A DNA stretch of 64,000 nucleotides from Candidatus Doudnabacteria bacterium. GTDB lineage: Bacteria; Patescibacteriota; Doudnabacteria; UBA920. Positions 5,199-42,201 of this stretch are shown piece after piece (position 1 is the first letter of the stretch; each line of letters opens with the position of its first letter). Made by a program: the position numbers and the translations under genes. Location of the stretch: positions 8,617 through 72,616 of the forward strand of contig JADZEH010000024.1 of the NCBI GenBank assembly GCA_020850635.1. Reading direction: 5' to 3'. A model generated the notes under the pieces. That model worked only from the letters and a program-made list of their open reading frames with translations. It was not told where the DNA came from and did no database searches.

Positions 5199-7115
5199 TT
5201 AGAATTGGTGGACTTCACCGGGTTTTAAGACTTGAGGGCTTTCCTCAGCTGGTTTTGGTGGCTGTGGTACGGGCTGTGTGGCTGGTTCTGCTGGTTTATT
5301 GATTGCAACTTGAGACACAGCACTCTCCACTTTATTTAACAAATCGTCAGTCTTTGATTTATCAATTGTGTGTACGGTATCCCAAATAGGGTTTTCGTGT
5401 TTTTTGGGTTGTGGTTTTGGTTGACTTGGTCGGTCAGTACTTCGTCTTTGTGGTGGTCTATTTCGATCGCCGTGTCTTCGGTTATCATCAGAACGATGTT
5501 CTGAGCGTGGTTGATTATTACTACTACCACGATCTCTGCGTGAATCTCTGCCGCCAGATGAACGAGTGCGGTTCGGGTCTGAAGATTGCTCAACTTTAGG
5601 AATCAAAGGCTTCTCCTTGTATTCATCTTTCGGTTCAGCTGAAGGAACAGCTGAAGCCATGGCCTTGGGTTCGGTAGGACGTGGAGCGTCGGGAACTGTT
5701 TCCGAAGCTGTAAATGGTTTTTGTGGTGCTAAAATTTCTTGAATTTGACTTTTGCGTTCTGTGGTTGGGTTTTCATCAGCTCTTTCTTCGGTGCCAACTA
5801 ATACACCTGCTTGTTCATGGTATTCAGCGCCCATCCAACGACTAATTTTTTCTTCAACTTCTGCAACGTCATTACCATATCGTTCGCGGGAAACTTTAAT
5901 TACCTTCTCGGCATTTCCAGTTTTCCATAAGTCATTAACGGGCATCGTTACAGCAGAAAAAGGATCACTGGCTACACCATTGATCATCAATTTTAAAATA
6001 ATGTTGTACTTCGGTAAGTTCACAATATCGGTTGGAGTAAAGATTGGGTCGAATTCTGTTTCTAGGAATTCGGCATCGGCTGCGCCAACTCGGAATATTA
6101 CCATGGTACCAACGTTACCAAACACAGCATCGCGAACCTTCGTACTGTTGCGATCGGGAACTAACTGACCAATATACTGGTGACCCATTATCAAATTCAG
6201 TCGGTATTTACGAGCTTCGCTCAAAATTGTAGCGAAACTTTCGGTCACAAAGTTTTGAAACTCATCTACATATAAATAGAAATCTTTACGTTCTTCTTCG
6301 GGGATATCAACGCGAGACAAAGCCGCCAATTGAAGTTTGGTAATAATCATCGCACCAAGCAAAGCTGAGTTGTCTTCACCAACTTTACCTTTAGACAAAT
6401 CCAAGAGCATGATCTTTTGGTTATCCATCATACTACGTAGGTCTATAGTAGAGCGTGGTTGACCGATAATATTACGAATAATACCGGATGACAAGAACTG
6501 TCCAACTTTGTTTTGAATTGGGGCTACCGCTTCTGTTCGATACTTTTCAGCATAGTTGGCGTATTCATCAACCCAAAAAGCGCGGACCATAGGGTCTTTG
6601 ATGTTGTCGACAATCTTTTTACGATACTTTTTGTCGACGTACATGCGAACAATACCAAGCATGGTGTTACCCGGACTTTCGAGCAAAGCCAAAATGGTGT
6701 TGTTAAGAATGTATTCCATACGAGAGGACCAGGTGTTGGCCCAAATCTTGGTAAACACACCCATCAAACCAGAAGCAACTAAATGTTTGTACTTGGTATC
6801 AACGGCTTCAAGAATGTTAAACGCGATTGGGTGATCTAAATCAGCAGGGTTAAAGTAAATAACGTCGTTAACACGACTACTTGGAACATAATCGAGGATT
6901 TTAGCGACTGAATCACCATGTGGGTCGATAAAACACACACCGTGACCATTTCTGATGTCCTGGATGACCATATTTTCCATCAAAGTCGTCTTACCCATAC
7001 CGGTTTTACCGATAATGTACATGTGACGACGACGATCATCAGCTTTTATACCAAAAGGCACTTCTCGATTGCGGAAGTTGGTTTTAGCGAAAAAGTTAAT
7101 GTCAGTATTGGCCAT
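5199..7115 (-). CDS. VirD4/TraG/TraD-family coupling-protein-like P-loop ATPase with a long low-complexity basic C-terminal tail
   Basis: Walker A GKTGMGKT, CFIDPHGD, Walker B YLYVDEFQNF, and a SEARKYRLNLIMGHQYIGQL motif like the TraG-D_C domain. No N-terminal TM helices. The last ~170 aa are rich in R/S/D/P/Q. Confidence 0.6.
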   Translation of the reverse strand: MANTDINFFAKTNFRNREVPFGIKADDRRRHMYIIGKTGMGKTTLMENMVIQDIRNGHGVCFIDPHGDSVAKILDYVPSSRVNDVIYFNPADLDHPIAFNILEAVDTKYKHLVASGLMGVFTKIWANTWSSRMEYILNNTILALLESPGNTMLGIVRMYVDKKYRKKIVDNIKDPMVRAFWVDEYANYAEKYRTEAVAPIQNKVGQFLSSGIIRNIIGQPRSTIDLRSMMDNQKIMLLDLSKGKVGEDNSALLGAMIITKLQLAALSRVDIPEEERKDFYLYVDEFQNFVTESFATILSEARKYRLNLIMGHQYIGQLVPDRNSTKVRDAVFGNVGTMVIFRVGAADAEFLETEFDPIFTPTDIVNLPKYNIILKLMINGVASDPFSAVTMPVNDLWKTGNAEKVIKVSRERYGNDVAEVEEKISRWMGAEYHEQAGVLVGTEERADENPTTERKSQIQEILAPQKPFTASETVPDAPRPTEPKAMASAVPSAEPKDEYKEKPLIPKVEQSSDPNRTRSSGGRDSRRDRGSSNNQPRSEHRSDDNRRHGDRNRPPQRRSTDRPSQPKPQPKKHENPIWDTVHTIDKSKTDDLLNKVESAVSQVAINKPAEPATQPVPQPPKPAEESPQVLKPGEVHQF

Positions 7116-7156
7116 AGTTGTAGTATAAAGTTATTAGCTTAAAGTAGCTAATATTA

Positions 7157-8479
7157 TTAGTAGTCGCCAGTAGGCAAATCCACAGGAGGCTGAGCTTTTT
7201 TGCTTTCGACTGAGGCCACTGGTGGCTGAGTTGGGTTTAACGACAATGGTAAATGGAATATCGTTGCGATTTCTTCAGCATTTAAGACAGGCATAGGATT
7301 ACCAATAAAGATACTGCGCTCTTTATACCCAGTGAACATGTATTTCTTCAGGATTTTCTTTTGTCTATCTACGTAAGGTTTTTCAAGGGTTGGTGAAAGC
7401 TTGGCCTTAGGATCGGTCCAAGTTTTTTTAGTATCTGGTTTTAAAGCGTTTAAAGTCCCTGAACCGAGAACGCGCATCGCCCCAACCATTAATGCTTTCT
7501 TAGCTGGGTCAAATTTATCTTTAGGGGCAACGTACATGTGACGAACTTTAGTATAATAGCCAGCCTTAGAAGTTTTATTCTGCACAGCATTAACTGCGGT
7601 TTTTTCAACCTCAGTCATGTTGAGTAAGTTATTTTTCTGATCATTTTTTTGCTCAGGTTTGACCTCTGAAACAAGTAAACTAGAAAATTTAAAATCTGCG
7701 ACAAAGTCAAACGGTGTCATTAAGATATTCAAGAGGGAAACTTTTTTTGGTAATTTTTCGCCAAGAAGAAGTTTTGATTTTTTTAGGGCTTCTTCGCGCC
7801 AACCTTCAGCATCGCCCGCTGGTTGAATAATCACTTGCATACCATAAAATTCCCAAGGTTGCATTTTACCCATGGCTTCGAAAACTGGTGCTAAGGGGTC
7901 GATAATTTTTTGTTCGGCAGTTGGATGTTCAAATTCTTTCCAAGTTTTAATCGGAATCGACTGGTCGTTGACAAGAGTAAATTCTGTACCCCAAAGATCA
8001 AAATCACTGGTTTCAGGGTCATACTCGATGTTTTCCATGTAATCATTAACTTCCACAACTTCTGCTGCCGGATACTGACCATAAATAGCCGCTTCAACCA
8101 ACTCTTTGGTATCAATCGGCGCGCGAATAATGAAGTTAACCTTACCACCTAGGCTCACGACTTCTAAGGAATACCATAGCATCACCTTACCTTCAATATA
8201 CTTGTTGGCAAAAGTCAGGCTAGTAAATAAGGCGTGGAGTTGATTAAAGATTTGTTCAACTGCCAGAGTACTCGTAAGGTTTTCGCGAGGAACTTTAATA
8301 CTCAAAAACACCCATTTTTGACTAGCAATAAACTGGGTGACAATTTCAAAGTAATATAGTTTATAGAGAATATAGATGCCGACGCCAATAAAGGCGACCC
8401 AACCACCGTGCGCAATAATGTACCACAATGGTCCAAAAATATCCCCCAACCCTGCAAACGGATTTCCAAAAATTCCCAT
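7157..8479 (-). CDS. Hypothetical membrane protein (N-terminal TM segments), co-oriented 41 bp upstream of the ATPase
   Basis: 440 aa. Hydrophobic N-terminus (WYIIAHGGWVAFIGVGIYILY). No recognised motif. Confidence 0.5.
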   Translation of the reverse strand: MGIFGNPFAGLGDIFGPLWYIIAHGGWVAFIGVGIYILYKLYYFEIVTQFIASQKWVFLSIKVPRENLTSTLAVEQIFNQLHALFTSLTFANKYIEGKVMLWYSLEVVSLGGKVNFIIRAPIDTKELVEAAIYGQYPAAEVVEVNDYMENIEYDPETSDFDLWGTEFTLVNDQSIPIKTWKEFEHPTAEQKIIDPLAPVFEAMGKMQPWEFYGMQVIIQPAGDAEGWREEALKKSKLLLGEKLPKKVSLLNILMTPFDFVADFKFSSLLVSEVKPEQKNDQKNNLLNMTEVEKTAVNAVQNKTSKAGYYTKVRHMYVAPKDKFDPAKKALMVGAMRVLGSGTLNALKPDTKKTWTDPKAKLSPTLEKPYVDRQKKILKKYMFTGYKERSIFIGNPMPVLNAEEIATIFHLPLSLNPTQPPVASVESKKAQPPVDLPTGDY

Positions 8480-8514: not shown

Positions 8515-9600
8515 CTAAACTAGAGCGTATAGATTCTTTGCAACCTTTTTAAATAGCTTCTTGTTTGATAGACCAACTAAGATAGTATTCTTTTTTACCA
8601 AACGACGTTCAAGTACAGCGTCTACTATTTCGTCTCGGGTCATTGGTTGACCTTTTTGCTCTAAGATCTCTTTAATCATATCAGAAACAACGCCAGGTTT
8701 ATATCCCCATTCAGCTAAAGCGTAAATTCCGCGACCAACAAGAACAAAACGAGTGTCTTTGATAAGTTTGTTATGAACAGTTTCTTTGTAAGCAGTACGG
8801 TTGTCGAGCTTATGTTTGTTAATAAGTTCAGTAATAGTAGCGTAATGTTCTGGTTTCTTGTGGTGACGCATGACCAAATAAGCTTTATCACCAACGTCTT
8901 TTGGATGAATTTCACTCCAATCGCTGAGACCAAACTCACCGAAGACATTTTGTTCAACTGGTTGGGCGGCGTGAAGGAAGTTAATTAAAACTCGGTCATG
9001 TAAATCTTGATGATGTTTGTTAAATAACTCAGTTTCCTTAACCTTTTCTAGGAAATGCTCAGTATGCATAGGCTTGCCATGCTTGTTGAACATAGACTTT
9101 ACTTCGGAAATAAAGTCTTTCAATAAATCTTTGTTAAAACTTGGCATTTTCCAAGATGGCTTGATGTGAGCCTCGTTATCAACAAGTTCTAATTCAGAAA
9201 TGAGGTGTAAAATAAAACGAATTGAGTTTTCTTGCTGAGGAGTTTGACTGTTAAGTAGTTCTAGTAAACGTTCTTCAGAGATAATTCCACCATGCTCTAA
9301 AACCATATTCACGATTAAATCACGAGCGAGTGAAAATACTTGTTCGTCATTGGCATTACGTTTTAAAGCTCCAAGAAGCTCCTTTTCAATTTGGCGAACG
9401 CGTTCACGGGTTAAGCCTTGTTCTTCACCAACAGTTTTCAGAGTGGCAACAGGACTACCGTTTAAACCATAACGCTTAATTAAGATGGTTTTTTCACGTT
9501 CTTTTAGAGGTTCTAAAAGCTTGGAGACAATCAAAGCATGCTCGAATTTCTCGAGGGTCTTTTGCTGTTGCGTATCAATAATTTGGTCTAAAATTCCCAT
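8515..9600 (-). CDS. DNA-binding protein with N-terminal sigma-70 region-4 HTH and C-terminal HARE-HTH-like domain
   Basis: LTRERVRQIEKEL matches sigma70 r4.2. The C-terminal ...RFVLVGRGIYALAEWGY resembles the HARE-HTH domain (RpoE delta N-terminal domain). Confidence 0.5.
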   Translation of the reverse strand: MGILDQIIDTQQQKTLEKFEHALIVSKLLEPLKEREKTILIKRYGLNGSPVATLKTVGEEQGLTRERVRQIEKELLGALKRNANDEQVFSLARDLIVNMVLEHGGIISEERLLELLNSQTPQQENSIRFILHLISELELVDNEAHIKPSWKMPSFNKDLLKDFISEVKSMFNKHGKPMHTEHFLEKVKETELFNKHHQDLHDRVLINFLHAAQPVEQNVFGEFGLSDWSEIHPKDVGDKAYLVMRHHKKPEHYATITELINKHKLDNRTAYKETVHNKLIKDTRFVLVGRGIYALAEWGYKPGVVSDMIKEILEQKGQPMTRDEIVDAVLERRLVKKNTILVGLSNKKLFKKVAKNLYALV

Positions 9601-9754
9601 ATATTTGTGATATTCTAAACAGATTTTTCAGATGTTCTAAAGTATAACATAAACTTTTATATAAGTCAAATAAACCATATAATACTGTTTTGGCCTGTGT
9701 ATAACCATTCACCCACCCTTAGAACCCTGTTATCGCCGGAAAATAGTATCGTTC

Positions 9755-9790
9755 AAAAAAACTGCCTCCATGGATGAAGACAGTTTTTTA
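9755..9790 (-). terminator. Intrinsic terminator downstream of secF
   Basis: 8-bp stem (ctgcctcc/gaagacag with GU wobbles), 6-nt loop, flanked by A-run and T-run. Confidence 0.4.
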
Positions 9791-9793
9791 AGC

Positions 9794-10687
9794 TTATGTT
9801 CGATTGGAGCGCCATCGTTGCCAGAGAACTAATAACGGTGAAGCTACGAAAATTGAGGAGTAAGTTCCAGCGATGATACCAATGAATAAGGCCAGGACGA
9901 AGTACTTAATTGTTTCGCCACCAAAGAGCAATAGAGCTAATAACACAAAGAGAACGGTTAAACTAGTGTTTAAGGAACGAACTATGGTCTGAGTAATGCT
10001 ATGGTTAACCACGAACTCAAAAGGCTGGCCAGCATAAACTTTTAAGTTTTCTCGAATTCTGTCGAAGACCACAATTGTGTCGTGAACACTAAACCCGAGA
10101 ACCGTAAGCATAGCGGTAACGAACAAGCTATCGATTTCAATGTCGTAATAATGGCCAAGGATTGAAAATATACCCAAGACAATTAATAAGTCGTGAAGTA
10201 AAGCGACAATAGCAGCTACACCAAATTGAAATGAGGTGATTGGTTTAGCAACTTTGCGAAACGCGTAAGAGATGTAGATAATGATACCAGCTGAAACGAG
10301 TAACAGCTGATAGATAGCCTTACGCTTAAGCTCGTCCCCTATTACTGGTCCGATAGATTCAAAGCGTTTTTCTTCAAATGCACCGACTTTAGTGCGAATG
10401 TCCTCGAGAAGCTTGTCATGCTGTTCTTTTTCAAGTGTCCCGGTGCGAATAATTACCCCGTTGTTGTCTGTTGACTGTAATTGAAACGAGCCAATGTTTT
10501 GTTCTTCGACTACGGTCTTTACGGTATTGATATCACGTGGTTCAGAAAATGACAGTTCAGAAACTGTACCACCTTTGAAGTCGATCCCAAGTCTCAACCC
10601 GAACACAGCTAACGAAATAACTCCAGCTATTAAAATAACCCCGGAAAAGACGAATAAGTATTTGTAGACAGAAAGTAGTTTAAACAT
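9794..10687 (-). CDS. secF: Protein translocase subunit SecF
   Basis: 297 aa. SecD/SecF family TM architecture, located immediately downstream of secD. Confidence 0.9.
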   Translation of the reverse strand: MFKLLSVYKYLFVFSGVILIAGVISLAVFGLRLGIDFKGGTVSELSFSEPRDINTVKTVVEEQNIGSFQLQSTDNNGVIIRTGTLEKEQHDKLLEDIRTKVGAFEEKRFESIGPVIGDELKRKAIYQLLLVSAGIIIYISYAFRKVAKPITSFQFGVAAIVALLHDLLIVLGIFSILGHYYDIEIDSLFVTAMLTVLGFSVHDTIVVFDRIRENLKVYAGQPFEFVVNHSITQTIVRSLNTSLTVLFVLLALLLFGGETIKYFVLALFIGIIAGTYSSIFVASPLLVLWQRWRSNRT

Positions 10688-10693
10688 AGTGGT

Positions 10694-12205
10694 TTATTGA
10701 TTGGCTCCAGCAGGTTCTGACTGGGTGGTTTTAATTTTCTTTGCTCCAAAGAGCCATGGATGTGACAGAATGCTCGCCCCTAAGAAAGTTTTAAGGAGCG
10801 TGCGGGTAATTGTAATCGCAGTAAACATTGAGATTAAAATACCAATTCCAAGTGTAATTGCGAAACCTTTAATCGACGGTGTACCAAACATGTACAGAAT
10901 GATTACCGTGATTAAGCTTGAAACGTTTGAATCGCGAATTGATGTCCAAGCACGAGCAAAACCATCCTGAACCGCTTTGTGAATATCTTTACCAGAATGA
11001 ATTTCTTCTTTCAAGCGTTCGAAAATTAAGATATTAGCATCAACCGCCATACCAATCGATAGGATAAACCCAGCAATACCAGCTAGAGTTAAAGTCACGG
11101 GAGCTAAACCACCTAAGAACAATAAAAGAATGTAACTAATTAGGGCTAGTGCTCCGAACCAGGCACTTACCGTAAGCCCAAGGAAGAAGAACAGACCCAC
11201 TAAGATAACAGCCGTAATTGAAATACCGATTTTAAAGACGGCAAATGAAATTAAGGCGTAGATAATTAAAGCAATAACAGCAAGTAGTCCTGGTAAGCGG
11301 TAGTTGTAAAGCATGAACACAATAATCAACAACATCCCGATAATACCAGCGATAATCGATTTTTGGATTGATTCTTGTCCAAGACTAGCCCCAACGTTTT
11401 GCTGGGATACTAAACTGATAGGAACAGGCAAAGCCCCACTGTTTAAATTCGTTGCTAAATCTTTAGCTGCTTTGATATCCCCAATACCTGTGATGTTAGC
11501 AATACCATCTGTGATTGGAGTTTGCACTGTCGGAGCGCTTAAAATTTGACCGTCGAGGAAAATCGCTACCCGTTTTCCTAAATTCTCCGAAGTAATTTTA
11601 GCGAATAAGTCTTTACCTTCGTCGTTAAATTCTAAACGGACCACGGCTTCGCTACCAATAGTACTGGTTCCCTGCTGAAGGATATCTGCAGTTGCTCGCT
11701 TCAGTTGCTTACCTGATAAACCAGTTGGCGCCCATAAATCTGCTGGATCAAGTACCATCTTACCAGTTGCATCAACACTGGCCTCTGGGTTAGCATTTGG
11801 ATTTTCTATGCGAAACTCCATAAATGGAGTTTGACCAATTTGTCGAATCGCTTCATTTACATCTTTAATTCCCGGGAGTTCAACTACAATTTTATCCTGA
11901 CCCTCAACTTGAACTAAGGGTTCAGCTACGCCGAAAGAGTTTACACGACGTTCAATAACCGTGCGAATCGAATTTAGGGCTTCTTCCCGATCTTCATCTG
12001 GAATATCTTTGAAGTCCGCTTGATAAACTAGGTGCGAGCCCCCTTGCAAATCTAATCCCAAATGAATACTAAATTGTTGTTCATAAGGAATCTTTAGTGG
12101 TTTTAAATTAATCTTACTACCTTGAGGATGCACGATCCATCCAGCTCCGGCGGCAACTATCAGTACAGCAAGTAAGGATAGTCCTAGACGTATTTTCTGT
12201 TTCAT
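10694..12205 (-). CDS. secD: Protein translocase subunit SecD
   Basis: 503 aa. N-terminal TM, periplasmic domain, C-terminal 6-TM SecD/F domain. Confidence 0.9.
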   Translation of the reverse strand: MKQKIRLGLSLLAVLIVAAGAGWIVHPQGSKINLKPLKIPYEQQFSIHLGLDLQGGSHLVYQADFKDIPDEDREEALNSIRTVIERRVNSFGVAEPLVQVEGQDKIVVELPGIKDVNEAIRQIGQTPFMEFRIENPNANPEASVDATGKMVLDPADLWAPTGLSGKQLKRATADILQQGTSTIGSEAVVRLEFNDEGKDLFAKITSENLGKRVAIFLDGQILSAPTVQTPITDGIANITGIGDIKAAKDLATNLNSGALPVPISLVSQQNVGASLGQESIQKSIIAGIIGMLLIIVFMLYNYRLPGLLAVIALIIYALISFAVFKIGISITAVILVGLFFFLGLTVSAWFGALALISYILLLFLGGLAPVTLTLAGIAGFILSIGMAVDANILIFERLKEEIHSGKDIHKAVQDGFARAWTSIRDSNVSSLITVIILYMFGTPSIKGFAITLGIGILISMFTAITITRTLLKTFLGASILSHPWLFGAKKIKTTQSEPAGANQ

Positions 12206-12295
12206 GAATTGATTAATTACTTAAAAATAGTTTAAACAAGCTTTAAAATCCTCACTAGTATAGCAAATTGTGAGGTTCTTTGGCAATTCTTGTTT

Positions 12296-13372
12296 TTAGA
12301 GGATTTTATGGAATGGCCAGGTTAAGACCTCAGCAATTTTTTGCCAAAGTTGACGGTGCCTCCACTGATGGCGTCGAATTTCTAATGAGCTCTCAATATC
12401 TTCGATAAATTGAGCCTTAACTTCTGCGGCAAATTTTTTGTCAGTACTGTTGATGTTCCCTTCGTAGTTGAAAAGTAAGCTTAAATTATCGAGATTTGAA
12501 CTTCCCACACTCGACCACTCATCATCAATTACTATAGTTTTGGCGTGCAGAACCGCATCGGCGTAAGTAAAAATTCTAATACCGGCTCTAAGCGCAATCC
12601 CAAAGTATGAGTACGTGGCAAGATCAACAATTGCGTGATCAGAAATTAAAGGCGTGATAATGCGAACATCTACCCCGCGTTTACTTGCCATGCGAAGAGC
12701 TCGGAAGATTGCAAGGTCAGGGATAAAGTAGGGCGAAGTGATAAATATATAATTTTCAGCTGATCGAATACTTGAAATTAGCTGTCTATATAGATAGCGT
12801 CTTTGGAAGTGGGGCGAGTTAGTAACATAATGAAAAGTTTCCGAGAAGTCTTTAGTTCGTGGATACCTCTGTGGTTTATTCGAAAGCTGTTTCGCTCTTA
12901 GATTGAAAAAAGCTTGTTCCATTTCCTTAACTACTAATCCTTTAATGCGCACGTGAGTGTCTCGCCAGTCTTTCATTCGTCCATTAATTCCGACTCCACC
13001 CGTATGACCGATCTCTGAATCGACCACTAGCAATTTTCGATGATCCCGGAAAAACCACGAAGTATAGTTATATGCTCGCCAAATGCTAATTGGTTTGAAA
13101 ATTAGTACTTCAACTCCCGCTTGCCTCATTTCAGCAATGAGATGTGAATATGTAAATAAATAACTACCAGCGCCGTCTAAAAGCAACTTAACTTTAATAC
13201 CTTCCTGCGCTTTCTTAATGAGCAGTTGCCCAAATTTATTCCCAATAACCGAATCATTGTTAAAAATATACTGCTCTAAACAAATAGAATGCTTGGCGGA
13301 CTCACAATCCTCATACATTGAATTCCAAGCGTCCTCAGCTTTAAGATAAAATTTCCATTCGGTGTTAGTCAT
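12296..13372 (-). CDS. Phospholipase D-family protein (cardiolipin synthase-like)
   Basis: Two HKD motifs: HRKLLVVDSEIGHTGGVGI and HAKTIVIDDEWSSVGSSNLD. Confidence 0.85.
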   Translation of the reverse strand: MTNTEWKFYLKAEDAWNSMYEDCESAKHSICLEQYIFNNDSVIGNKFGQLLIKKAQEGIKVKLLLDGAGSYLFTYSHLIAEMRQAGVEVLIFKPISIWRAYNYTSWFFRDHRKLLVVDSEIGHTGGVGINGRMKDWRDTHVRIKGLVVKEMEQAFFNLRAKQLSNKPQRYPRTKDFSETFHYVTNSPHFQRRYLYRQLISSIRSAENYIFITSPYFIPDLAIFRALRMASKRGVDVRIITPLISDHAIVDLATYSYFGIALRAGIRIFTYADAVLHAKTIVIDDEWSSVGSSNLDNLSLLFNYEGNINSTDKKFAAEVKAQFIEDIESSLEIRRHQWRHRQLWQKIAEVLTWPFHKIL

Positions 13373-14156
13373 GGAGTTTGTTCATCGTTGTTAAAAAAGC
13401 GTTTGCCCAGTTTTCGTAACCAATGTCTGACGGGTGAAATTGATCTTGAGCAAAAGTGATTTTTATATCTGGATATAGATGCCAGCCAAAATCATGGATT
13501 GGAACAACATGAACTCGATCGTTTTCTAGCTTGAGAAGTTCACGATTGACTACTTGGGCTTTGGCCTCAAGGACTTGTCTAAAAATCCATGGCAATAAAG
13601 GTGCGTCTTTTAAAATAGGAGTATTTGTTAGATAGATCTGAGCGTGAGTTTCAGCAAGTAATCTCTCAATAATAATTGAGTAATTTTCGACGATACTTGC
13701 GTTGCTTTTTAAATGGGTAATATCATTAGCCCCGATGGAGAGTGTGATGATGTCAGGATTCACCTCAATTATTTTGGGTAGTTGTTCTTCAATCACATTG
13801 TTTGTACGTGCTCCGCTTTTACCCACATGAACATATTTAACTTTATTTTGTTCAGACAGTCTTTGGAAAACTTTGTACGTATAAGTATGAGCAATGTCAC
13901 TGGCGCCTACACCAACAGAAGTACTATCACCAGCGGCAACATAAGTTAAGAGTTCGCCCGATCCCTGTTCACTATTTTGTTGAACGATTTCTGGCAATCG
14001 ATTACTTTTGAGTACATACAAGAATCGCCCATAAGAGACGGCGGCGTAAACAACAACAACGGCGAGAATTATGTACATTATTTTGAAGTTACGTTTTGAC
14101 AATTTGTTTGAGTTGTAAAAAGTCTTTGATAATTTCGGCTTTGACTTTTGGAGCAT
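13365..14156 (-). CDS. SGNH/GDSL hydrolase family protein
   Basis: GDS(T)S block VAAGDSTSVG, GAND block, DQFHPSD (DxxH). N-terminal TM. The likely start is the internal Met at 14078. Confidence 0.8.
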   Translation of the reverse strand: MLQKSKPKLSKTFYNSNKLSKRNFKIMYIILAVVVVYAAVSYGRFLYVLKSNRLPEIVQQNSEQGSGELLTYVAAGDSTSVGVGASDIAHTYTYKVFQRLSEQNKVKYVHVGKSGARTNNVIEEQLPKIIEVNPDIITLSIGANDITHLKSNASIVENYSIIIERLLAETHAQIYLTNTPILKDAPLLPWIFRQVLEAKAQVVNRELLKLENDRVHVVPIHDFGWHLYPDIKITFAQDQFHPSDIGYENWANAFLTTMNKLHD

Positions 14157-14661
14157 AAAGTGGAGCAGCAGGATGATAAGCTAACAAATATTTAATGCCA
14201 TCATTTTCGACAATAGTTCCGTGTTCTTTGGCAATAGAAATATTTTGCTTTAGTACAGCGAGTGCTGCAACTCGACCTAGTAAGACTACAACTTTAGGCT
14301 CAATGATAGCAAACTGCAGCAACAAGTGTTTGCGACCATGCGCAACTTCGGCTGGTGTTGGTGTAACGTGTTTCGGCAAGTACTTTACCGGACTTGTGAT
14401 GTAGACATCTTTTTCTTTTAAACCAACTTCATTGATTAAACCGCGAAGCAGCTTCCCTGCTCTACCGATAAATGGTCTGCCGGTTTTAGCTTCTTCTTTC
14501 CCAGGAGCTTCGCCAATAAAGACAATGTCAGCATCGGGATTGCCTTCACCGGGAACAGCAACCCCAATTTTATCCTTTTTACAAACACGGCACTGCGAAA
14601 TTTGCAGTGCGATAGTATCTAAGGCTTCTTGTTTTTGTTTCTTTGTCAGTTTCTTTGGCAT
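14089..14661 (-). CDS. Uracil-DNA glycosylase, family 4
   Basis: [25 protein letters not shown] motif plus Cys residues (CRVCKK). The ORF extends to 14772, but the Met at 14661 matches the conserved UDG4 N-terminus and avoids overlapping the neighbouring gene. Confidence 0.8.
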
Positions 14662-14719
14662 GTCTTGAGTATACGAAAAAAGCCCATCCTTGGGTAGGAG
14701 GAGCTTTTCCAAAATACTC

Positions 14720-15742
14720 TTATTGAATACAAATATAGTTCCAGGTTTCGGCTCCGCCAGTTGTAGAGGCAACGAAATTTAAGGTAAGAGCTGTGGTAGA
14801 CGAAGTTACATAAACCTTACCGGCATCTACTTGGCCAGTGTCCGTGGCTGGGCTTACAGTGCATACCGGAGCCGATGCGTAAGCGGTTTGGAAAGTAACA
14901 ACTAAAGTCCCTGCTCCAGCGCCGACAGTTGCTGAAATTTTTCCTTTAGTATCGCTACTTCCTGAACTCAAAGTGGCACCGCTATAACCAGCACCTGTAA
15001 CGCTGGGTGTTGGGGCTGTTGTCTGTGATGAAATCAAGTGAGAAGTCGCTGGTCCAAGTGTAACGTTAGTACCCACAGTTACACCACTTGCCGCGATAGT
15101 AACAACGGCCGTGGTTGGTCTAGCTGCAAAGCCACCCGTAAAACCAATTCCGATAGTACTAGCACTGTGTGGGTAAATTGCACCAACATTACCTGGGGTA
15201 TTCAGAGTATAACCAATTCCGGATCCTCCATAGAGAATAATTCCACCCGTACCTGCTCCATTTGCTTCTGACCCAATTGCCAGAGTACCATTACTACTCG
15301 CGCTTGCTACTGAACTTGCCGACAGTCGCATTATGGTGTCTGGGCTAACTGGATTTGCTCCTGGAGGTGACCACAGAAAATCGAATGATGGACTACCAGC
15401 AAAATCACCCATTGAAATATTAGTCCCTAACACACTCGTATCATCTAAATTGTACGAATTATAGGTAGCTGTTGGGGACATATTAAAAGTAAACTGTGAC
15501 AACCTTATCAAATCTGAAAGCACAGAAGAGGTGGCCATATGAGCATACATACCAGTTTCAGCAATTGGGATCCTTAAAGTTCCCGTTAAAGTAGTGTCCC
15601 CGGTGATTGCAACTGATGTCCCTTGCAAAGCAATTAAGCCGTCCGATGTTATCGTAGTCGAGCCAACTGTTAAAGCCGCTTGTGCGGATTTTGCACTAGT
15701 AAATAATAGTGCAATAAAAATTAAAAAATAGAGTTTTTTCAT
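14720..15742 (-). CDS. Secreted Gly/Thr/Ser-rich repeat protein (paralog 1; candidate surface/adhesin beta-solenoid)
   Basis: Signal peptide ...SAKSAQA. Conserved AALTVG...ITSDGL block shared with the 30749-31600 product. Low-complexity G/T/S/A repeats. C-terminal Cys pair (VCTVSP...NYICIQ). Confidence 0.6.
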   Translation of the reverse strand: MKKLYFLIFIALLFTSAKSAQAALTVGSTTITSDGLIALQGTSVAITGDTTLTGTLRIPIAETGMYAHMATSSVLSDLIRLSQFTFNMSPTATYNSYNLDDTSVLGTNISMGDFAGSPSFDFLWSPPGANPVSPDTIMRLSASSVASASSNGTLAIGSEANGAGTGGIILYGGSGIGYTLNTPGNVGAIYPHSASTIGIGFTGGFAARPTTAVVTIAASGVTVGTNVTLGPATSHLISSQTTAPTPSVTGAGYSGATLSSGSSDTKGKISATVGAGAGTLVVTFQTAYASAPVCTVSPATDTGQVDAGKVYVTSSTTALTLNFVASTTGGAETWNYICIQ

Positions 15743-30292: not shown

Positions 30293-30295
30293 ATA

Positions 30296-30621
30296 CTTTT
30301 AGCAAACTCGTAAGCCGAATTCTGTTTCTAAATAATCATCTATCTTGTCCTGCTGTTACCACCAGGATCATGCTGCCTACCAAATTTGGCATTGCACTCA
30401 GGTAAGGATTTGGCCGTTTCACCCTCTACATTACTGCAAAGGTTCACCCCGAAGGGTGCTCTTGGCTTGCGCCGCCAGCGTCACTGTTCGCACCTCTAAA
30501 ATTACTTTCGACGGGAATTACCCGCTACCCTTGTTAATGACTCTATAGTGGCCATCAACTAAGTGTTCGGACTTTCCTCTCTTAGCCTTGCGGTAAGAGC
30601 GATTATTCGATTTGCTAAAAG
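30296..30621 (-). ncRNA. rnpB: RNase P RNA (bacterial type; M1-like ribozyme)
   Basis: The minus strand carries GAGGAAAGUCCGAACAC (P4 5-prime strand), GGGUGAAACGG, ACAGAAUUCGGCUUAC (P4 3-prime strand). Terminal P1 pairing is CUUUUAGCAAAU / GUUUGCUAAAAG. No ORF. About 326 nt. Confidence 0.8.
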
Positions 30622-30689: not shown

Positions 30690-30713
30690 AAAAACCCCTC
30701 CATGCGGAGGGGC
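30690..30713 (-). terminator. Intrinsic terminator after the secreted repeat protein gene (cccctcc/ggagggg)
   Basis: 7-bp GC stem with a tetraloop, then T-run on the minus strand. Confidence 0.55.
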
Positions 30714-30748: not shown

Positions 30749-31600
30749 TTAAGGACTGGCATCAGCCCAAGCTGCGCCGGTACAAATCCACAAAATAGCG
30801 GCATCAGTCTCAACGTAAATTCTTCCAGCTTCTCCAGCTGCGTCACAATCGGTACCGGTAGGGGTAGCTGTTCCTGAAGGGATTTCTAGTAAACCAGCAA
30901 TGTTTGTAGTAGAGGTTGCGTGACCTATGTTAACTACATCTGTGGAAGGAACACCCTGAGTAGCAACAATGTTAACGGTTCTTGTACCAGCTAAAGCAGC
31001 TGCATTAGAAATGTTAACAGTTGTATTTCCACTACCCAGTGTATTGTTTGCAATGTTAAGAGTAGTTGTTGTGCCAGCGGCATTTACACCATTGGCAATA
31101 TTTACGGTTTGAATGTTTGTGCCACTTAAGTTAGCAGAACCAATATTAATAATATTTGAAGTACCGTTTGATTGACCAATAGTAATGGTACCTGTCTGAG
31201 CTGTTCCACCGATAGTGATTGTACCAGTAGTCATCGCGGCACCAATAGCAACGGATCCAGCGGTTTGAGTATTACCGATAGCGATAACGTTAGCTCCGGT
31301 TCCACCAACGCTAATGGTTTTAACCACAGCGGCACCAGTACCAATGTTAATTGTCTGTGCGGCTGTTCCAGTTCCCAAGCCAATGGTACCAGTTTGTCCC
31401 GTACCACCTAAAGTCAAAGTTCCAGCAACTGCAGCAGAACCAAGAACGATATCAGAACCTGCAGCAGCTTCCATTGATAAAGCACCATCGCTAGTAACAG
31501 CTAGGGCACCTACAGTCAAAGCTGCTCCGGCAGAACCCGGAACCATCAACGCGATAATTGCCAAACTCGCGGTGGCAATTTGCATTCCTTTTAGTTTCAT
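30749..31600 (-). CDS. Secreted Gly/Thr-rich beta-solenoid-like repeat protein (paralog 2)
   Basis: Signal peptide ...GSAGA. AALTVGALAVTSDGAL block shared with paralog 1. About 14-aa periodic T-x-T-I-x-I-G / N-I-x-N repeats. C-terminal CD...GEAGRIYVETD...LWICTGAAW. Confidence 0.6.
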   Translation of the reverse strand: MKLKGMQIATASLAIIALMVPGSAGAALTVGALAVTSDGALSMEAAAGSDIVLGSAAVAGTLTLGGTGQTGTIGLGTGTAAQTINIGTGAAVVKTISVGGTGANVIAIGNTQTAGSVAIGAAMTTGTITIGGTAQTGTITIGQSNGTSNIINIGSANLSGTNIQTVNIANGVNAAGTTTTLNIANNTLGSGNTTVNISNAAALAGTRTVNIVATQGVPSTDVVNIGHATSTTNIAGLLEIPSGTATPTGTDCDAAGEAGRIYVETDAAILWICTGAAWADASP

Positions 31601-31695
31601 TTTATCTTTCCTTTATTTCAAATATTTTCTATTTGAACAAGTTATTTTATGCATTAATTATACCACACTTTTAATACGCAAGGTGGATAACCTCG

Positions 31696-40786: not shown

Positions 40787-40860
40787 TGGCAGGGGCTGTA
40801 GGAATCGAACCTACGCAAATGGTTTTGGAGACCATTGTACTACCATTATACGAAGCCCCC
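40787..40860 (-). tRNA. tRNA-Trp (anticodon CCA)
   Basis: Reverse complement GGGGGCUUCGUAUAAUGGUAGUAC...CUCCAAA...GGUUCGAUUCC...CCA. Cloverleaf folds with anticodon CCA. CCA is encoded. Confidence 0.9.
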
Positions 40861-40930
40861 ATCAAAAGATGGTGATTATGTGCTAACCCAGTAAGTATAG
40901 CAAACCCCGAGGCTGTCCCCGGGGTAAATA

Positions 40931-41086
40931 CTACTTGGTTTCTTTGTGAACAGACATTTTCTTGCAGTGCTTACAAAACTTCTTGATTTCCAAGCGAGCT
41001 GGGGTGTTTTTCTTGTTCTTGCTCGTCATGTAATTCAAGTTTTTGCAAACCGTACATTCCAAATCGATTCGGTTATCTTGAGACAT
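40931..41086 (-). CDS. rpmG: 50S ribosomal protein L33
   Basis: 51-aa product [51 protein letters not shown] with two CxxC pairs. Below the ORF-track size cutoff. Confidence 0.85.
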
Positions 41087-41159
41087 AAAAAATGTTTTAA
41101 GTTGTTACAATTGTTTCAGCTATTGCAGCCAGGATCCGTTGGATACTTTTCTGAAACTA

Positions 41160-41235
41160 TGGAGCCGGCTGTCGGACTCGAACCGACCACCTACGGTTTA
41201 CAAAACCGTTGCTCTACCAGATGAGCTAAGCCGGC
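41160..41235 (-). tRNA. tRNA-Thr (anticodon UGU)
   Basis: Reverse complement GCCGGCUUAGCUCAUCUGGUAGAGCAACGGUUUUGUAAACCGU...GGUUCGAGUCC...GCCGGCUCCA. Confidence 0.9.
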
Positions 41236-41320
41236 ATCTAAAACTGACTTTTATTGCGTAGATAAAAGCCAAAATATTGTACCATAAACCCTGGAAAAAA
41301 TCCAGTCTTAATATAGTCGA

Positions 41321-41349
41321 TTGACATCAGCAGAAATTTATAGCATAAT
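41321..41349 (+). promoter_or_regulatory. Consensus-like sigma70 promoter TTGACA-17-CATAAT for the high-GC ORF
   Basis: -35 at 41321-41326, -10 at 41344-41349. AAGGAGGAG Shine-Dalgarno at 41386-41394. Confidence 0.5.
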
Positions 41350-41398
41350 ACTCAATCGACAGACACCAAATTCTGACGAGCTTCTAAGGAGGAGACCG

Positions 41399-41932
41399 AT
41401 GACTTTTGACCGCAGAGATAACGAACCATATCTCAAGCTCAACGACCAACTATACCAACGAACGTTAAGCGGAAGTATGGCAACAAACCATGCCCTGTTT
41501 CACTCCATCGTCATAGAGGCGATGAAGATGTTCGCAGACGTGCCCGGATGGGAGGAAAGAACTGGAGCGTACTGGGCAATTGCGGGCATCTACACCGAAG
41601 AGTCTTACGCTGCGGGCTACGCGGGTAACAACGGTTACTCAGCAGGTGAACAATTTCGATTGCGATGCAAAGAAAAGCTGGCACGTTTGGCGTCGCACCG
41701 ACATCACTTGAGCAGTGCCGAAAGCCGGAACCCTGATCGGCTCCAATTCGGAGGAGCGATCCGTACCAACTGGTACATGCTCTCGATGTCGGGACTACCC
41801 GAAGACGGCGACGAAATCTGCGTGCTCAAATTCGCTGTGGAGCGCTCCTGGCTCACCGACGACCAGGCAAAGCAGATCGCCGAGATCAGCGACAACTGGC
41901 TTTGGAAAGAGTTCTCTGAATTGCTCTTCTAG
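41399..41932 (+). CDS. Hypothetical protein, compositionally foreign (~53% GC), inserted within a tRNA cluster
   Basis: ATG at 41399 after a strong SD. The ORF-track start at 41321 is a TTG that coincides with the -35 box. 177 aa, MTFDRRDNEPYLKLNDQLYQRTLSGS... No recognised domain. Confidence 0.55.
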   Translation: MTFDRRDNEPYLKLNDQLYQRTLSGSMATNHALFHSIVIEAMKMFADVPGWEERTGAYWAIAGIYTEESYAAGYAGNNGYSAGEQFRLRCKEKLARLASHRHHLSSAESRNPDRLQFGGAIRTNWYMLSMSGLPEDGDEICVLKFAVERSWLTDDQAKQIAEISDNWLWKEFSELLF

Positions 41933-41962
41933 CAGACTGCGCCACAACGGCGCGACGTTCCA

Positions 41963-42001
41963 CCCTGCCCCTCCATCTCGGAGCGGCAGGGGATTTTTTT
42001 A
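41963..42001 (+). terminator. Intrinsic terminator (ccctgcc...ggcaggg, T7) for the high-GC ORF
   Basis: GC-rich stem with a nested ctcc/ggag inner stem, followed by seven Ts. Confidence 0.7.
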
Positions 42002-42012
42002 TCCAATAACAA

Positions 42013-42038
42013 AAGACACCTCATTTGAGGTGTCTTTT
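42013..42038. terminator. Bidirectional hairpin terminator (aagacacctc/gaggtgtctt) that also ends the tRNA-Thr/tRNA-Tyr transcript on the minus strand
   Basis: 10-bp stem, 4-nt loop, with A-run and T-run flanks. Directly abuts the tRNA-Tyr 3-prime end. Confidence 0.6.
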
Positions 42039-42039
42039 G

Positions 42040-42125
42040 TGGTGGGCCGAGAAGGATTCGAACCTTCGAAGGCAAAAGCCAGCAGATTTACAGTCTGCCC
42101 CCGTTGACCGCTTGGGTATCGACCC
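42040..42125 (-). tRNA. tRNA-Tyr (anticodon GUA), class II with long variable arm
   Basis: Reverse complement GGGUCGAUACCCAAGCGGUCAACGGGGGCAGACUGUAAAUCUGC...GGUUCGAAUCC...CCCACCA. 86 nt. Confidence 0.9.
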
Positions 42126-42201
42126 TGGAGCCGTTTTGCGGGATCGAACCGCAGACCTTCTCCTTACCATGGAGATGCTCTACCAACTGAGCTAAAACGG
42201 C
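42126..42201 (-). tRNA. tRNA-Thr (anticodon GGU)
   Basis: Reverse complement GCCGUUUUAGCUCAGUUGGUAGAGCAUCUCCAUGGUAAGGAGA...GGUUCGAUCCC...AAACGGCUCCA. Immediately adjacent to tRNA-Tyr. Confidence 0.9.

Follow-up and report, generated by a model that had tools for sequence, protein, structure and literature searches.

The two proteins analysed here, Prot1 and Prot2, are best explained as Sec-exported surface fibres resembling phage tail fibres, with a constant base, swappable tips and a probably trimeric build, a reading in which our confidence is slightly better than even. Both are encoded on the minus strand of a window of 64,000 nucleotides from Candidatus Doudnabacteria, an ultra-small CPR/Patescibacteria bacterium. 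The Prot1 gene (14720..15742; 340 aa plus stop) comprises a signal peptide, an N-module, a unique middle region and a C-terminal tip domain, and the Prot2 gene (30749..31600; 283 aa plus stop) a signal peptide, an N-module, repeats and a C-terminal cap. Prot1 is identical to P0001, a "hypothetical protein [Candidatus Doudnabacteria bacterium]". Since parts of phage tail fibres are combined here with an export signal in place of the virus-attachment domain, thin cell-binding surface fibres are likelier than a surface-layer coat. Of the roles considered in an earlier note on this DNA, it is the surface adhesin that fits best.

Both proteins start with a basic n-region, a hydrophobic core of 12–15 residues, which AlphaFold2 (AF2) models as a helix (residues 2–13 in Prot1, 6–18 in Prot2), and an A-x-A motif (SAQA and SAGA, respectively, followed by A). 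As read from the sequence, the Sec signal peptide of Prot1 spans residues 1–22 (15677..15742, minus strand; MKKLYFLIFIALLFTSAKSAQA, then A) and that of Prot2 residues 1–26 (31523..31600, minus strand; MKLKGMQIATASLAIIALMVPGSAGA, then A). An A at position -1, directly ahead of the conserved [AT]LT motif, recurs in 20 of the 20 family members listed, in line with the secretion proposed earlier, and export via Sec and signal peptidase I is predicted for both proteins. CPR bacteria are presumed to have a Gram-positive-like envelope, and sortase genes are present in related loci. In Prot1 and Prot2 themselves, we found no LPXTG motif, lipobox, SLH, LysM or PG-binding domain, and the features of a sortase substrate or lipoprotein were absent: the C-termini read ...WNYICIQ and ...AAWADASP, and neither signal peptide contains a Cys. 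Lacking a known wall-anchoring device, the two proteins could simply be released; a PG_binding_1 partner gene for wall binding was sought in the window and not found. Scans of Pfam and NCBIfam at E<=1 gave no relevant match, the sole hit of any kind being CTXphi_pIII-N1 (E 0.1) over the signal-peptide region, and Pfam, NCBIfam and PHROGs scans of Prot1, Prot2 and the phage homologues yielded nothing useful.

Immediately behind the signal peptide, at position +1 of both proteins, begins the motif ALTVG-x3-[IV]TSDG; when all six frames of the window were scanned for it by regex, the Prot1 and Prot2 ORFs were the only ones to contain it. The N-module covers residues 23–54 of Prot1 (15581..15676, minus strand; ALTVGSTTITSDGLIALQG..TGDTTLTG; by BLASTP and family profile) and residues 27–50 of Prot2 (31451..31522, minus strand; ALTVGALAVTSDGALSMEAAAGSD; by family profile). 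In pairwise BLASTP, the N-terminal 34 aa of the two proteins were 47% identical (E 3e-4). A family profile built from 16 other members, with Prot1, Prot2 and their orthologues excluded, matched Prot2 at E 1.1e-11 and Prot1 end to end (columns 1–34 on residues 23–54, starting exactly at +1), the latter with a domain E of 9.6e-7 uncorrected and 0.0098, hence modest, once corrected for composition. These matches confirm the common AALTVG/TSDG motif described in the earlier note, whereas the paralogy claimed there narrows to about 30 residues past the signal peptide; the rest is not homologous, and the two are therefore not full-length paralogues.

Both proteins belong to an unnamed modular family, named SP-ALT in this analysis and defined by an [AT]LT[VIFLM]-x(4-6)-[ST][DN]G module immediately after a signal peptide. 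Its consensus module of about 30 residues ([AT]LT[VIF]G..[ST]DGA..L.G..GS) is followed by interchangeable shafts and C-terminal tips. One member, P0005, consists of a Prot2-like N-terminus and shaft joined to a Prot1-type tip, and the sequences suggest that tips are swapped upon a constant base. The family occurs in Doudnabacteria, Saccharibacteria and other CPR lineages; its taxonomic range is under-sampled, since the genome scan used a narrower alignment and returned 5 GTDB loci only.

A second shared block had been claimed at the C-terminus (C...DAGKVYV...ICIQ), which did not hold up: BLASTP gave E 0.75 over 7 residues, and the profile-profile comparison (hhalign) of Prot2 with the Prot1-type tip domain reached a probability of 2.2% over 12 columns. 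The two C-termini thus belong to different families. In Prot1, residues 226–340 (14723..15067, minus strand) form a tip domain, a beta-sandwich of ~105 aa with the conserved pair C294/C338, for which AF2 predicts 8 strands at pLDDT 82–88. The domain is unnamed; its signature, which Prot1 carries, reads H..SSQ, S.D..G, F..AY..AP.C, W.Y.C, and an exhaustive profile search collected 1243 representatives at E<=1e-3, with the match extending to the C-terminus among the matches listed. Its Cys residues co-vary (both in 90 members, neither in 45, the first only in 0), as expected for a disulfide, which counts towards extracytoplasmic folding. Against BFVD, the Prot1 tip matched models of phage and "putative tail fiber" proteins (E 5.5e-8, 3e-4 and 7.5e-3), and tips of this type terminate tail-fibre-like ORFs on the high-GC viral contigs L016 and L018.

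The stretch between N-module and tip in Prot1 (residues 55–225; 15068..15580, minus strand) is G/T/S/A-rich, non-periodic and lineage-specific; it is matched by P0002 alone (54% identity), its AF2 pLDDT lies below 50, and the Prot1 shaft had no match to the fibres of the ~33–41 kb phages discussed below. Prot1 as a whole, previously described as a Gly/Thr-rich repeat protein, does have the composition (52% G+T+S+A) and lacks the repeats, its periodicity not exceeding that of shuffled sequences.

Prot2, with 76 homologues found, is built differently. Its shaft (residues 51–150; 31151..31450, minus strand) consists of about ten 11-residue repeats of the form [IVL]-x-[IVL]-G-x5-[GT]-T, the lag-11 autocorrelation of Prot2 being attained by 0 of 300 shuffles, and is mostly 60–75% identical over ~80 aa to 64 proteins, most of them phage fibres. 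A lineage-specific second repeat block (residues 151–235; 30896..31150, minus strand), made of five 14–15 residue 'VNI..' units and a linker, is matched by P0007, P0008, P0011 and P0023 alone. The C-terminal cap (residues 236–283; 30752..30895, minus strand; LEIPSG..C250..GEAGRIYVETD..LWIC273TG..W) has three short strands, modelled within residues 261–280 at pLDDT 81–91. In the AF2 monomer, residues 20–240 are extended (pLDDT ~80) with no intrachain strands or other secondary structure, as expected of a chain that forms sheets only in an intertwined oligomer; a beta-helix, as raised earlier, would be plausible for Prot2. Tandem repeats were not found in the DNA of the Prot2 gene, which accordingly gives no sign of slippage-type phase variation. 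Foldseek against the PDB returned no significant match for the Prot1 or the Prot2 model, and sequence-profile searches against the PDB no match. As candidate relatives of the cap, the T4 fibritin foldon (hhalign probability 0.8%) was dropped as a homology claim, and the collagen XV/XVIII trimerisation domains were not significant (Foldseek E at least 1.7).

The relation of Prot2 to phage fibres extends over several modules. Residues 26–218 align with residues 75–254 of the phage-type fibre P0016 (48% identity, E 2e-31), the N-module from residue 75 of P0016 onward, and the cap aligns with C-termini of phage-type fibres ('LPGP..G.G.P..G..YINTT..R.YIAT..W'), some of which contain it. N-module, 11-residue-repeat shaft and cap are collinear with the phage fibres, a signal peptide replacing the ~74-residue phage N-terminal domain, and by its shaft and cap Prot2 is essentially a phage fibre protein of the type found in ~33–41 kb tailed phages (L001, L003, L022 and 77 IMG/VR contigs encoding Prot2 relatives). 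The phage homologues sit on ~36–38 kb genomes with SSB, ERF, RusA, HNH and C1q- and S74-fibre genes, and GC contents are 32–39% for phage loci and 38–47% for CPR loci. The phage fibres are longer (330–960 aa) and have phage-specific N-terminal domains and no signal peptide, whereas Prot1 and Prot2 carry a Sec signal and lie in the core chromosome; neither the phage N-terminal domain nor a phage genomic context was found for either of them. Among roughly 73 ORFs on IMG/VR contigs that were not cut by the locus end, 0 combined a signal peptide with an ALT start, and the viral homologue N-termini examined carry phage-type motifs. A tblastn search of GenBank phages gave no match to Prot1 or Prot2, to which the low-complexity filter may have contributed.

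This homology could also mean that the genes are inert prophage tail-fibre remnants or tailocin parts with no cellular role. We consider this extremely improbable, as the ORFs scanned in the 64-kb window, a piece of core chromosome, include no phage genes besides Prot1 and Prot2, both ORFs are intact, the Cys pair is conserved, and conserved signal peptides would be needless for a tail assembled in the cytoplasm. Synteny of the orthologues is moreover kept in another Doudnabacteria genome, and P0008, the Prot2 orthologue, adjoins enolase as Prot2 does. For the favoured reading as cellular fibres, it counts that all versions with a signal peptide that were examined are encoded on cellular contigs, beside housekeeping or envelope genes. 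A secreted fibre copy might instead serve as an anti-phage decoy or receptor mask, occupying the receptor or poisoning fibre assembly and thereby blocking adsorption of the related ~36–40 kb phages. The collinearity of Prot2 with phage fibres up to the cap, together with the loss of the phage N-terminal domain and the gain of an export signal, would suit such a role; it is nevertheless very unlikely, because identities of 40–75% do not make a near-identical mimic, the family has diversified with many tips for which no phage counterpart was found, and no defence genes adjoin Prot1 or Prot2.

Between the two genes lie those for SecA, HPF, MurB, a Mur ligase, a patatin, MurG, three GT4 proteins, a WbaP-type transferase and an epimerase. 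The envelope and glycan locus that the pair had been said to bracket is hence real, although the arrangement is not conserved in related loci. Upstream of Prot2, an extended -10 promoter-like element (TGgTATAAT; 31657..31665, minus strand; a consensus match only) and a Shine-Dalgarno-like AAAGGAAAG (31605-31613; read from the sequence) were located, and the stem of an intrinsic terminator hairpin was detected 37 nt past its stop (30695..30712, minus strand; GCCCCTCCGCATGGAGGGG plus TTTTT on the minus strand). Given the promoter-like element and the terminator, Prot2 probably forms its own transcription unit.

A monocistronic gene of this kind, signal peptides, a position among envelope genes and a Ser/Thr-rich composition would also befit an S-layer or another abundant envelope coat that self-assembles into a lattice and may receive glycans from the GT cluster next to it. 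Such a coat is nonetheless distinctly unlikely, and the S-layer-like label of the earlier note is not retained: neither protein contains an SLH domain or any other domain of S-layer proteins, both have only 283–340 aa made of phage-fibre shaft repeats and tip domains, and tips are swapped among paralogues, which is typical of receptor-binding fibres and not of lattice proteins. In addition, the related locus L024 encodes a separate SLH protein of 1492 aa. As for glycosylation, the ORFs scanned in the window did not include an oligosaccharyltransferase (Wzy_C/PglL- or STT3-type); the only hint in that direction is a Wzy_C / GT / WbaP-like set in L005, located upstream of the cluster of pilin and fibre genes.

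The related CPR loci further illustrate the modular nature of the family. Tandem SP-ALT paralogues, three in L008 and two in L005, share near-identical N-termini and bear three different tips, so that the suspected expansion of the family in related genomes was indeed found. In both loci, these genes lie directly downstream, on the same strand, of genes for a prepilin peptidase and four minor-pilin-like proteins, and L008 additionally has PilB and PilC. The proteins could therefore be Sec-exported accessory or tip adhesins of a type IV pilus, riding on or acting together with a minor-pilin complex and functionally like PilY1, the more so as type IV pili are reported to mediate host binding in cultivated Saccharibacteria (PMC11623550). 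We regard this option as unlikely, however, since the synteny was seen in two related genomes only, no pilus gene lies near Prot1 or Prot2 within the window, the neighbours at other SP-ALT loci differ (enolase, a PG-binding protein or an SLH protein), and similarity to PilY1 or PilC adhesins is lacking.

In the favoured reading as phage-fibre-like surface fibres, the chains would assemble once they are exported and freed of the signal peptide, probably into intertwined homotrimers of the kind that phage fibres form. The constant N-module could then represent the cell-proximal end, docking on a wall component or a partner protein, while the variable C-terminal tip would face outward and bind its ligand on a different cell or surface, in the case of an episymbiotic CPR bacterium most plausibly the envelope of the host. 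A wider and considerably more speculative idea, which we put forward as doubtful, is that CPR/Patescibacteria have domesticated receptor-binding fibres of phages, or exchange them with phages, a Sec signal and a docking module of ~30 aa replacing the virion-attachment domain, so that mini-fibres with cassette-like tips serve host-envelope recognition. If this were true, tip domains common to CPR and phage fibres could render CPR-host pairings predictable from sequence.

The mechanisms by which CPR episymbionts recognize and attach to their hosts are largely unexplained, type IV pili being the only structures tested, in a few cultivated Saccharibacteria, and SP-ALT fibres are concrete candidates for host-recognition molecules. 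The analysis furthermore links a large, uncharacterised group of ~33–41 kb phages to CPR surface proteins, which could help to assign phage hosts or CPR partners. If Prot1 and Prot2 proved to be nothing more than ordinary secreted proteins, what would remain is the naming of two modules, widespread yet unannotated: the ALT module at the N-terminus and the tip with the Cys pair.

Among known systems, the heads of trimeric autotransporter adhesins (TAAs; YadA/Hia 'SVAIG' left-handed beta-roll) embody a comparable concept of a fibre-like adhesin, and we take them to resemble the short G/A/T-rich [IV]-x-[IV]-G repeats seen here, e.g., NVIAIGNTQTAGSVAIG. The repeat period of a TAA head is, however, about 14 residues versus 11 in Prot2, the C-terminal membrane-anchor barrel is missing in Prot1 and Prot2, and no Pfam match to a YadA head, stalk or anchor was obtained at E<=1. 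With PilY1-type adhesins, the L005 and L008 proteins have in common a Sec-type signal peptide and a gene position right after a minor-pilin cluster, but sequence or domain similarity is absent and the window genes are not pilus-linked.

The mosaic adhesive trimer (MAT) fibres of Bdellovibrio bacteriovorus offer a further comparison. By sequence, Prot1 and Prot2 were not placed in the MAT superfamily (no PDB sequence match; Foldseek 8ond_B only at E 1.7), and they differ in several respects. Bdellovibrio is a diderm, as opposed to the Gram-positive-like envelope assumed for CPR bacteria; the MAT N-terminal domain has ~130 aa versus ~30 aa in the N-module, and many MATs contain an S74 chaperone-protease domain, whereas Prot1 and Prot2 have no Peptidase_S74 match. 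Solved MAT constructs, moreover, reach ~900–1150 residues (PMC10769870), compared to the 283–340 aa of the proteins described here. In MAT fibres, a signal peptide and a conserved N-terminal domain are followed by a phage-like, trimeric shaft that ends in variable tips (Caulton et al., 2024, PMC10769870); they are located at the surface, and surface-exposed recognition of prey has been shown for them (PMC10769870). The likeness includes chromosomally encoded, phage-tail-fibre-like proteins in a bacterium living on other bacteria, with multiple paralogues per genome, as well as the succession of signal peptide, conserved N-terminal region, beta-rich shaft and diverse, swappable C-terminal tips. 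By analogy, the architecture and logic of Prot1 and Prot2 would thus parallel those of the MAT fibres, outside the MAT family in terms of sequence.

The window belongs to the core chromosome of a CPR bacterium, with genes for SecDF, SecA, Mur enzymes, enolase, ribosomal proteins, DnaE and the like. Two of its proteins, Prot1 (14720-15742, reverse strand, 340 aa) and Prot2 (30749-31600, reverse strand, 283 aa), matched no family in Pfam, NCBIfam or PHROGs; the sequence of Prot1 is the same as that of a "hypothetical protein" from a Candidatus Doudnabacteria MAG. The genes between them agree in content with the earlier note. At the 3' end of Prot1, a mechanically called UDG-family ORF with a TTG start (14089-14772, reverse strand) overlaps by 53 nt. 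Its first in-frame ATG (MPKKLTKKQ...) lies at about 14661 and, since it would remove the overlap with Prot1, is probably the real start (stretch between the two starts 14661-14772, reverse strand). Further observations in the window are a cluster of four tRNA genes (40790-42201, reverse strand; Rfam RF00005) upstream of the rpsB-tsf operon region, and a VirD4/TrwB-like coupling ATPase (5199-8479, reverse strand; TrwB_AAD_bind, DUF87, TraG-D_C) adjoining a 440-aa protein without family and with an apparent N-terminal hydrophobic segment. The two may belong to the monoderm-type type IV secretion system that a preprint reports for Patescibacteria (bioRxiv 10.1101/2025.01.22.634366).

Prot1 and Prot2 both start with a classical Sec signal (residues 1-22 and 1-26, respectively), with a Lys-rich n-region, then a hydrophobic core and finally A-x-A, and in both the motif ALTVG-x3-[IV]TSDG follows directly at +1; a six-frame translation of the window held no third occurrence. 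In BLASTP, the two proteins were significantly similar at this N-terminus only (34 aa, 47% identity, E 3e-4). A profile of the first 34 mature residues, made from 16 other family members with Prot1, Prot2 and their orthologues excluded, was then run against all 355 six-frame segments of the window. Prot2 matched at E 1.1e-11, and Prot1 aligned end to end, starting exactly at the predicted +1 residue, with a domain E of 0.0098 with the HMMER composition correction and 9.6e-7 without it. The N-terminal similarity claimed earlier was thus borne out, and these results argue that the N-module common to both proteins (residues 23-54 of Prot1, 27-50 of Prot2) is real, though short and of biased composition. 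The C-terminal similarity claimed alongside it ("C...DAGKVYV...ICIQ") is not real: BLASTP gave E 0.75 over 7 residues, and when the two C-terminal families were compared profile to profile, the probability was 2.2%.

Prot2 is strongly periodic, with a period of 11 residues. Its N-module is followed by a shaft of about ten 11-residue units ([IVL]-x-[IVL]-G-x5-[GT]-T; residues 51-150), five "VNI.." units of 14-15 residues (residues 151-222) and a 48-residue C-terminal cap that contains two Cys and forms three short strands. In the AF2 monomer model (pLDDT about 78), intrachain secondary structure is absent over residues 20-240, which would fit, as a hint and not as proof, a chain whose sheets arise only on intertwining into an oligomer, as in phage fibres; Foldseek found nothing significant for this model in the PDB. 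The gene has its own extended –10-like element, Shine-Dalgarno sequence and hairpin terminator, and enolase adjoins it as it does the orthologue P0008. The "empty" stretch of about 510 bp downstream contains the RNase P RNA gene (30295-30618, reverse strand; RF00010, 108.6 bits), which has a strong promoter-like site of its own (TTGACA-17-TATTAT with TG, 30657-30629) and, as terminator, a 17-bp hairpin (30294-30255).

The 76 homologues of Prot2 fall into two kinds. Those with a signal peptide share the N-module and diverge strongly in their C-termini. Those without start with a conserved domain ("...YGLSQ..P.PI..R.PT..D...G..W"), and every contig of theirs that was looked up is a phage genome of about 36-38 kb carrying SSB, ERF, RusA, HNH, DUF551 and C1q-tipped and S74-tipped fibre genes, with several fibre paralogues per genome. 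Residues 26-218 of Prot2, including the N-module, are collinear with residues 75-254 of the phage-type fibre P0016 (48% identity, E 2e-31), and the cap can be aligned to the C-terminal ends of some of these phage fibres. An IMG/VR scan found shaft relatives encoded on 77 viral contigs, mostly of 33-41 kb; these ORFs are 330-960 aa long, the N-termini examined bear phage-type motifs, and none of the approximately 73 not cut by the locus end combines a signal peptide with an ALT start. Collinearity, cap alignment and these N-termini together argue that Prot2 is a phage-fibre body with an export signal in place of the N-terminal phage domain. Such homology could also suggest a prophage remnant; the setting, however, is cellular, with no phage genes in the window. 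An anti-phage decoy, an unlikely reading, would likewise draw on this homology.

The phages of about 33-41 kb (L001, L003, L022, L025-L101; the 77 IMG/VR contigs) are a large, apparently uncharacterised group of tailed phages, each encoding multiple G/T-rich fibre paralogues (C1q-tipped, S74-tipped and others), of which just one among those tested matched PHROGs, in a family of unknown function. Shaft and cap are common to these fibres and the CPR-encoded secreted proteins. The cap motif of Prot2 (G-x-[IVL]-Y-[IVF]-[DN]-...-[YW]-[IVY]-x-x-G-x-x-W; residues 250-280, window 30761-30853) also caps some phage fibres, and a similar motif, GQxYFDxSTSPPxEYxYNGxxW, stands at the N-terminus of others in the same group (L043, L045, L058, L064, L076, L080, L085, L092); the two may represent a single mobile beta-hairpin module. 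Homology of the cap motif to the T4 foldon was considered and rejected.

Prot1 had been described as a low-complexity repeat protein; its composition is indeed 52% G+T+S+A, but it shows no periodicity above shuffles. The non-periodic middle region (residues 55-225), which AF2 does not model, has a counterpart in one orthologue only (60% identical). The C-terminal tip (residues 226-340) is a confidently modelled beta-sandwich (pLDDT 82-88). A word-indexed search gave few relatives, and an exhaustive profile search 1243 representatives at E<=1e-3 (196 at <=1e-10); among the matches listed the domain is C-terminal, in proteins that are 67-1615 aa long and highly varied at the N-terminus. Both Cys of its pair occur in 90 members and neither in 45, the first never without the second, as a disulfide in an exported domain would predict. 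The tip has no significant counterpart in the PDB; in BFVD it matches models for an uncultured Caudovirales protein (E 5.5e-8) and for a "putative tail fiber protein" (102-107 columns, rmsd 2.7-3.7 Å). The same domain stands at the end of tail-fibre-like ORFs from IMG/VR contigs, making it a tail-fibre-type tip. In GTDB it occurs in another Doudnabacteria MAG, in a 508-aa protein of the SP-ALT family (signal peptide followed by the ALT-type N-module; 74% identity in the tip), two Saccharibacteria and two Acidobacteriota.

Tips are swapped among paralogues. P0005 joins a Prot2-like N-terminus and shaft to a Prot1-type tip, and P0070, P0072 and P0087 join the ALT module to such tips. Locus L008 (6838-9887) encodes three tandem paralogues that hardly differ in signal peptide and N-module and are tipped by a novel domain, a Prot1-type tip and a Prot2-type Cys cap, and L005 (8001-9758) two with near-identical N-termini and differing tips. 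The proposed paralogy and family expansion therefore hold in a modular sense, as tandem members with a constant base and exchangeable tips.

Both arrays, which come from two related CPR genomes, directly follow a prepilin peptidase and four minor-pilin-like genes, with PilB and PilC additionally present in L008, as would suit the less likely reading as pilus accessory proteins; Wzy_C, GT2, methyltransferase and WbaP-like genes lie just upstream of the L005 cluster. A recurrent neighbour, encoded next after the fibre gene in L007, L010, L015 and L023 (at 8999-9832, 1223-2323, 6339-7205 and 11285-12412, respectively), is a secreted protein in which a P/T-rich linker leads to a terminal peptidoglycan-binding domain (PF01471 on record in L007 and L010, a sequence reading in L015 and L023). 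In L024, a similar protein without this domain lies upstream (6616-7617), and a separate 1492-aa SLH protein is encoded, which speaks against an S-layer reading of Prot1 and Prot2. The mature N-terminus of the linker proteins reads "A[AD]LT[WF].AD.T[VI].L..", and those binding peptidoglycan are candidate wall anchors for the fibres. The window holds none of these partners (pilus genes, peptidoglycan-binding protein, SLH protein); thus, the bracketing of Mur/GT/WbaP genes by Prot1 and Prot2 is not a conserved feature.

While this architecture is well supported, the function is what we infer from it: the fibres would assemble as trimers outside the membrane, with the N-module docking them at the cell-proximal end, possibly to a peptidoglycan-binding protein or pilus machinery in other lineages, and the C-terminal tip binding ligands on host or partner cell surfaces. 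We came across no description of phage-fibre-like secreted proteins from CPR bacteria in the literature searched. Phage-fibre-derived bacterial surface fibres are already known as a kind; new here are the very small size, the N-module of about 30 aa directly after the signal peptide, the occurrence in CPR and the collinearity with fibres of an uncharacterised phage group. In function, the nearest precedent is the repertoire of mosaic adhesive trimer (MAT) fibres of Bdellovibrio bacteriovorus (PMC10769870), although Prot1 and Prot2 lie outside the MAT family both by sequence and by domain content.
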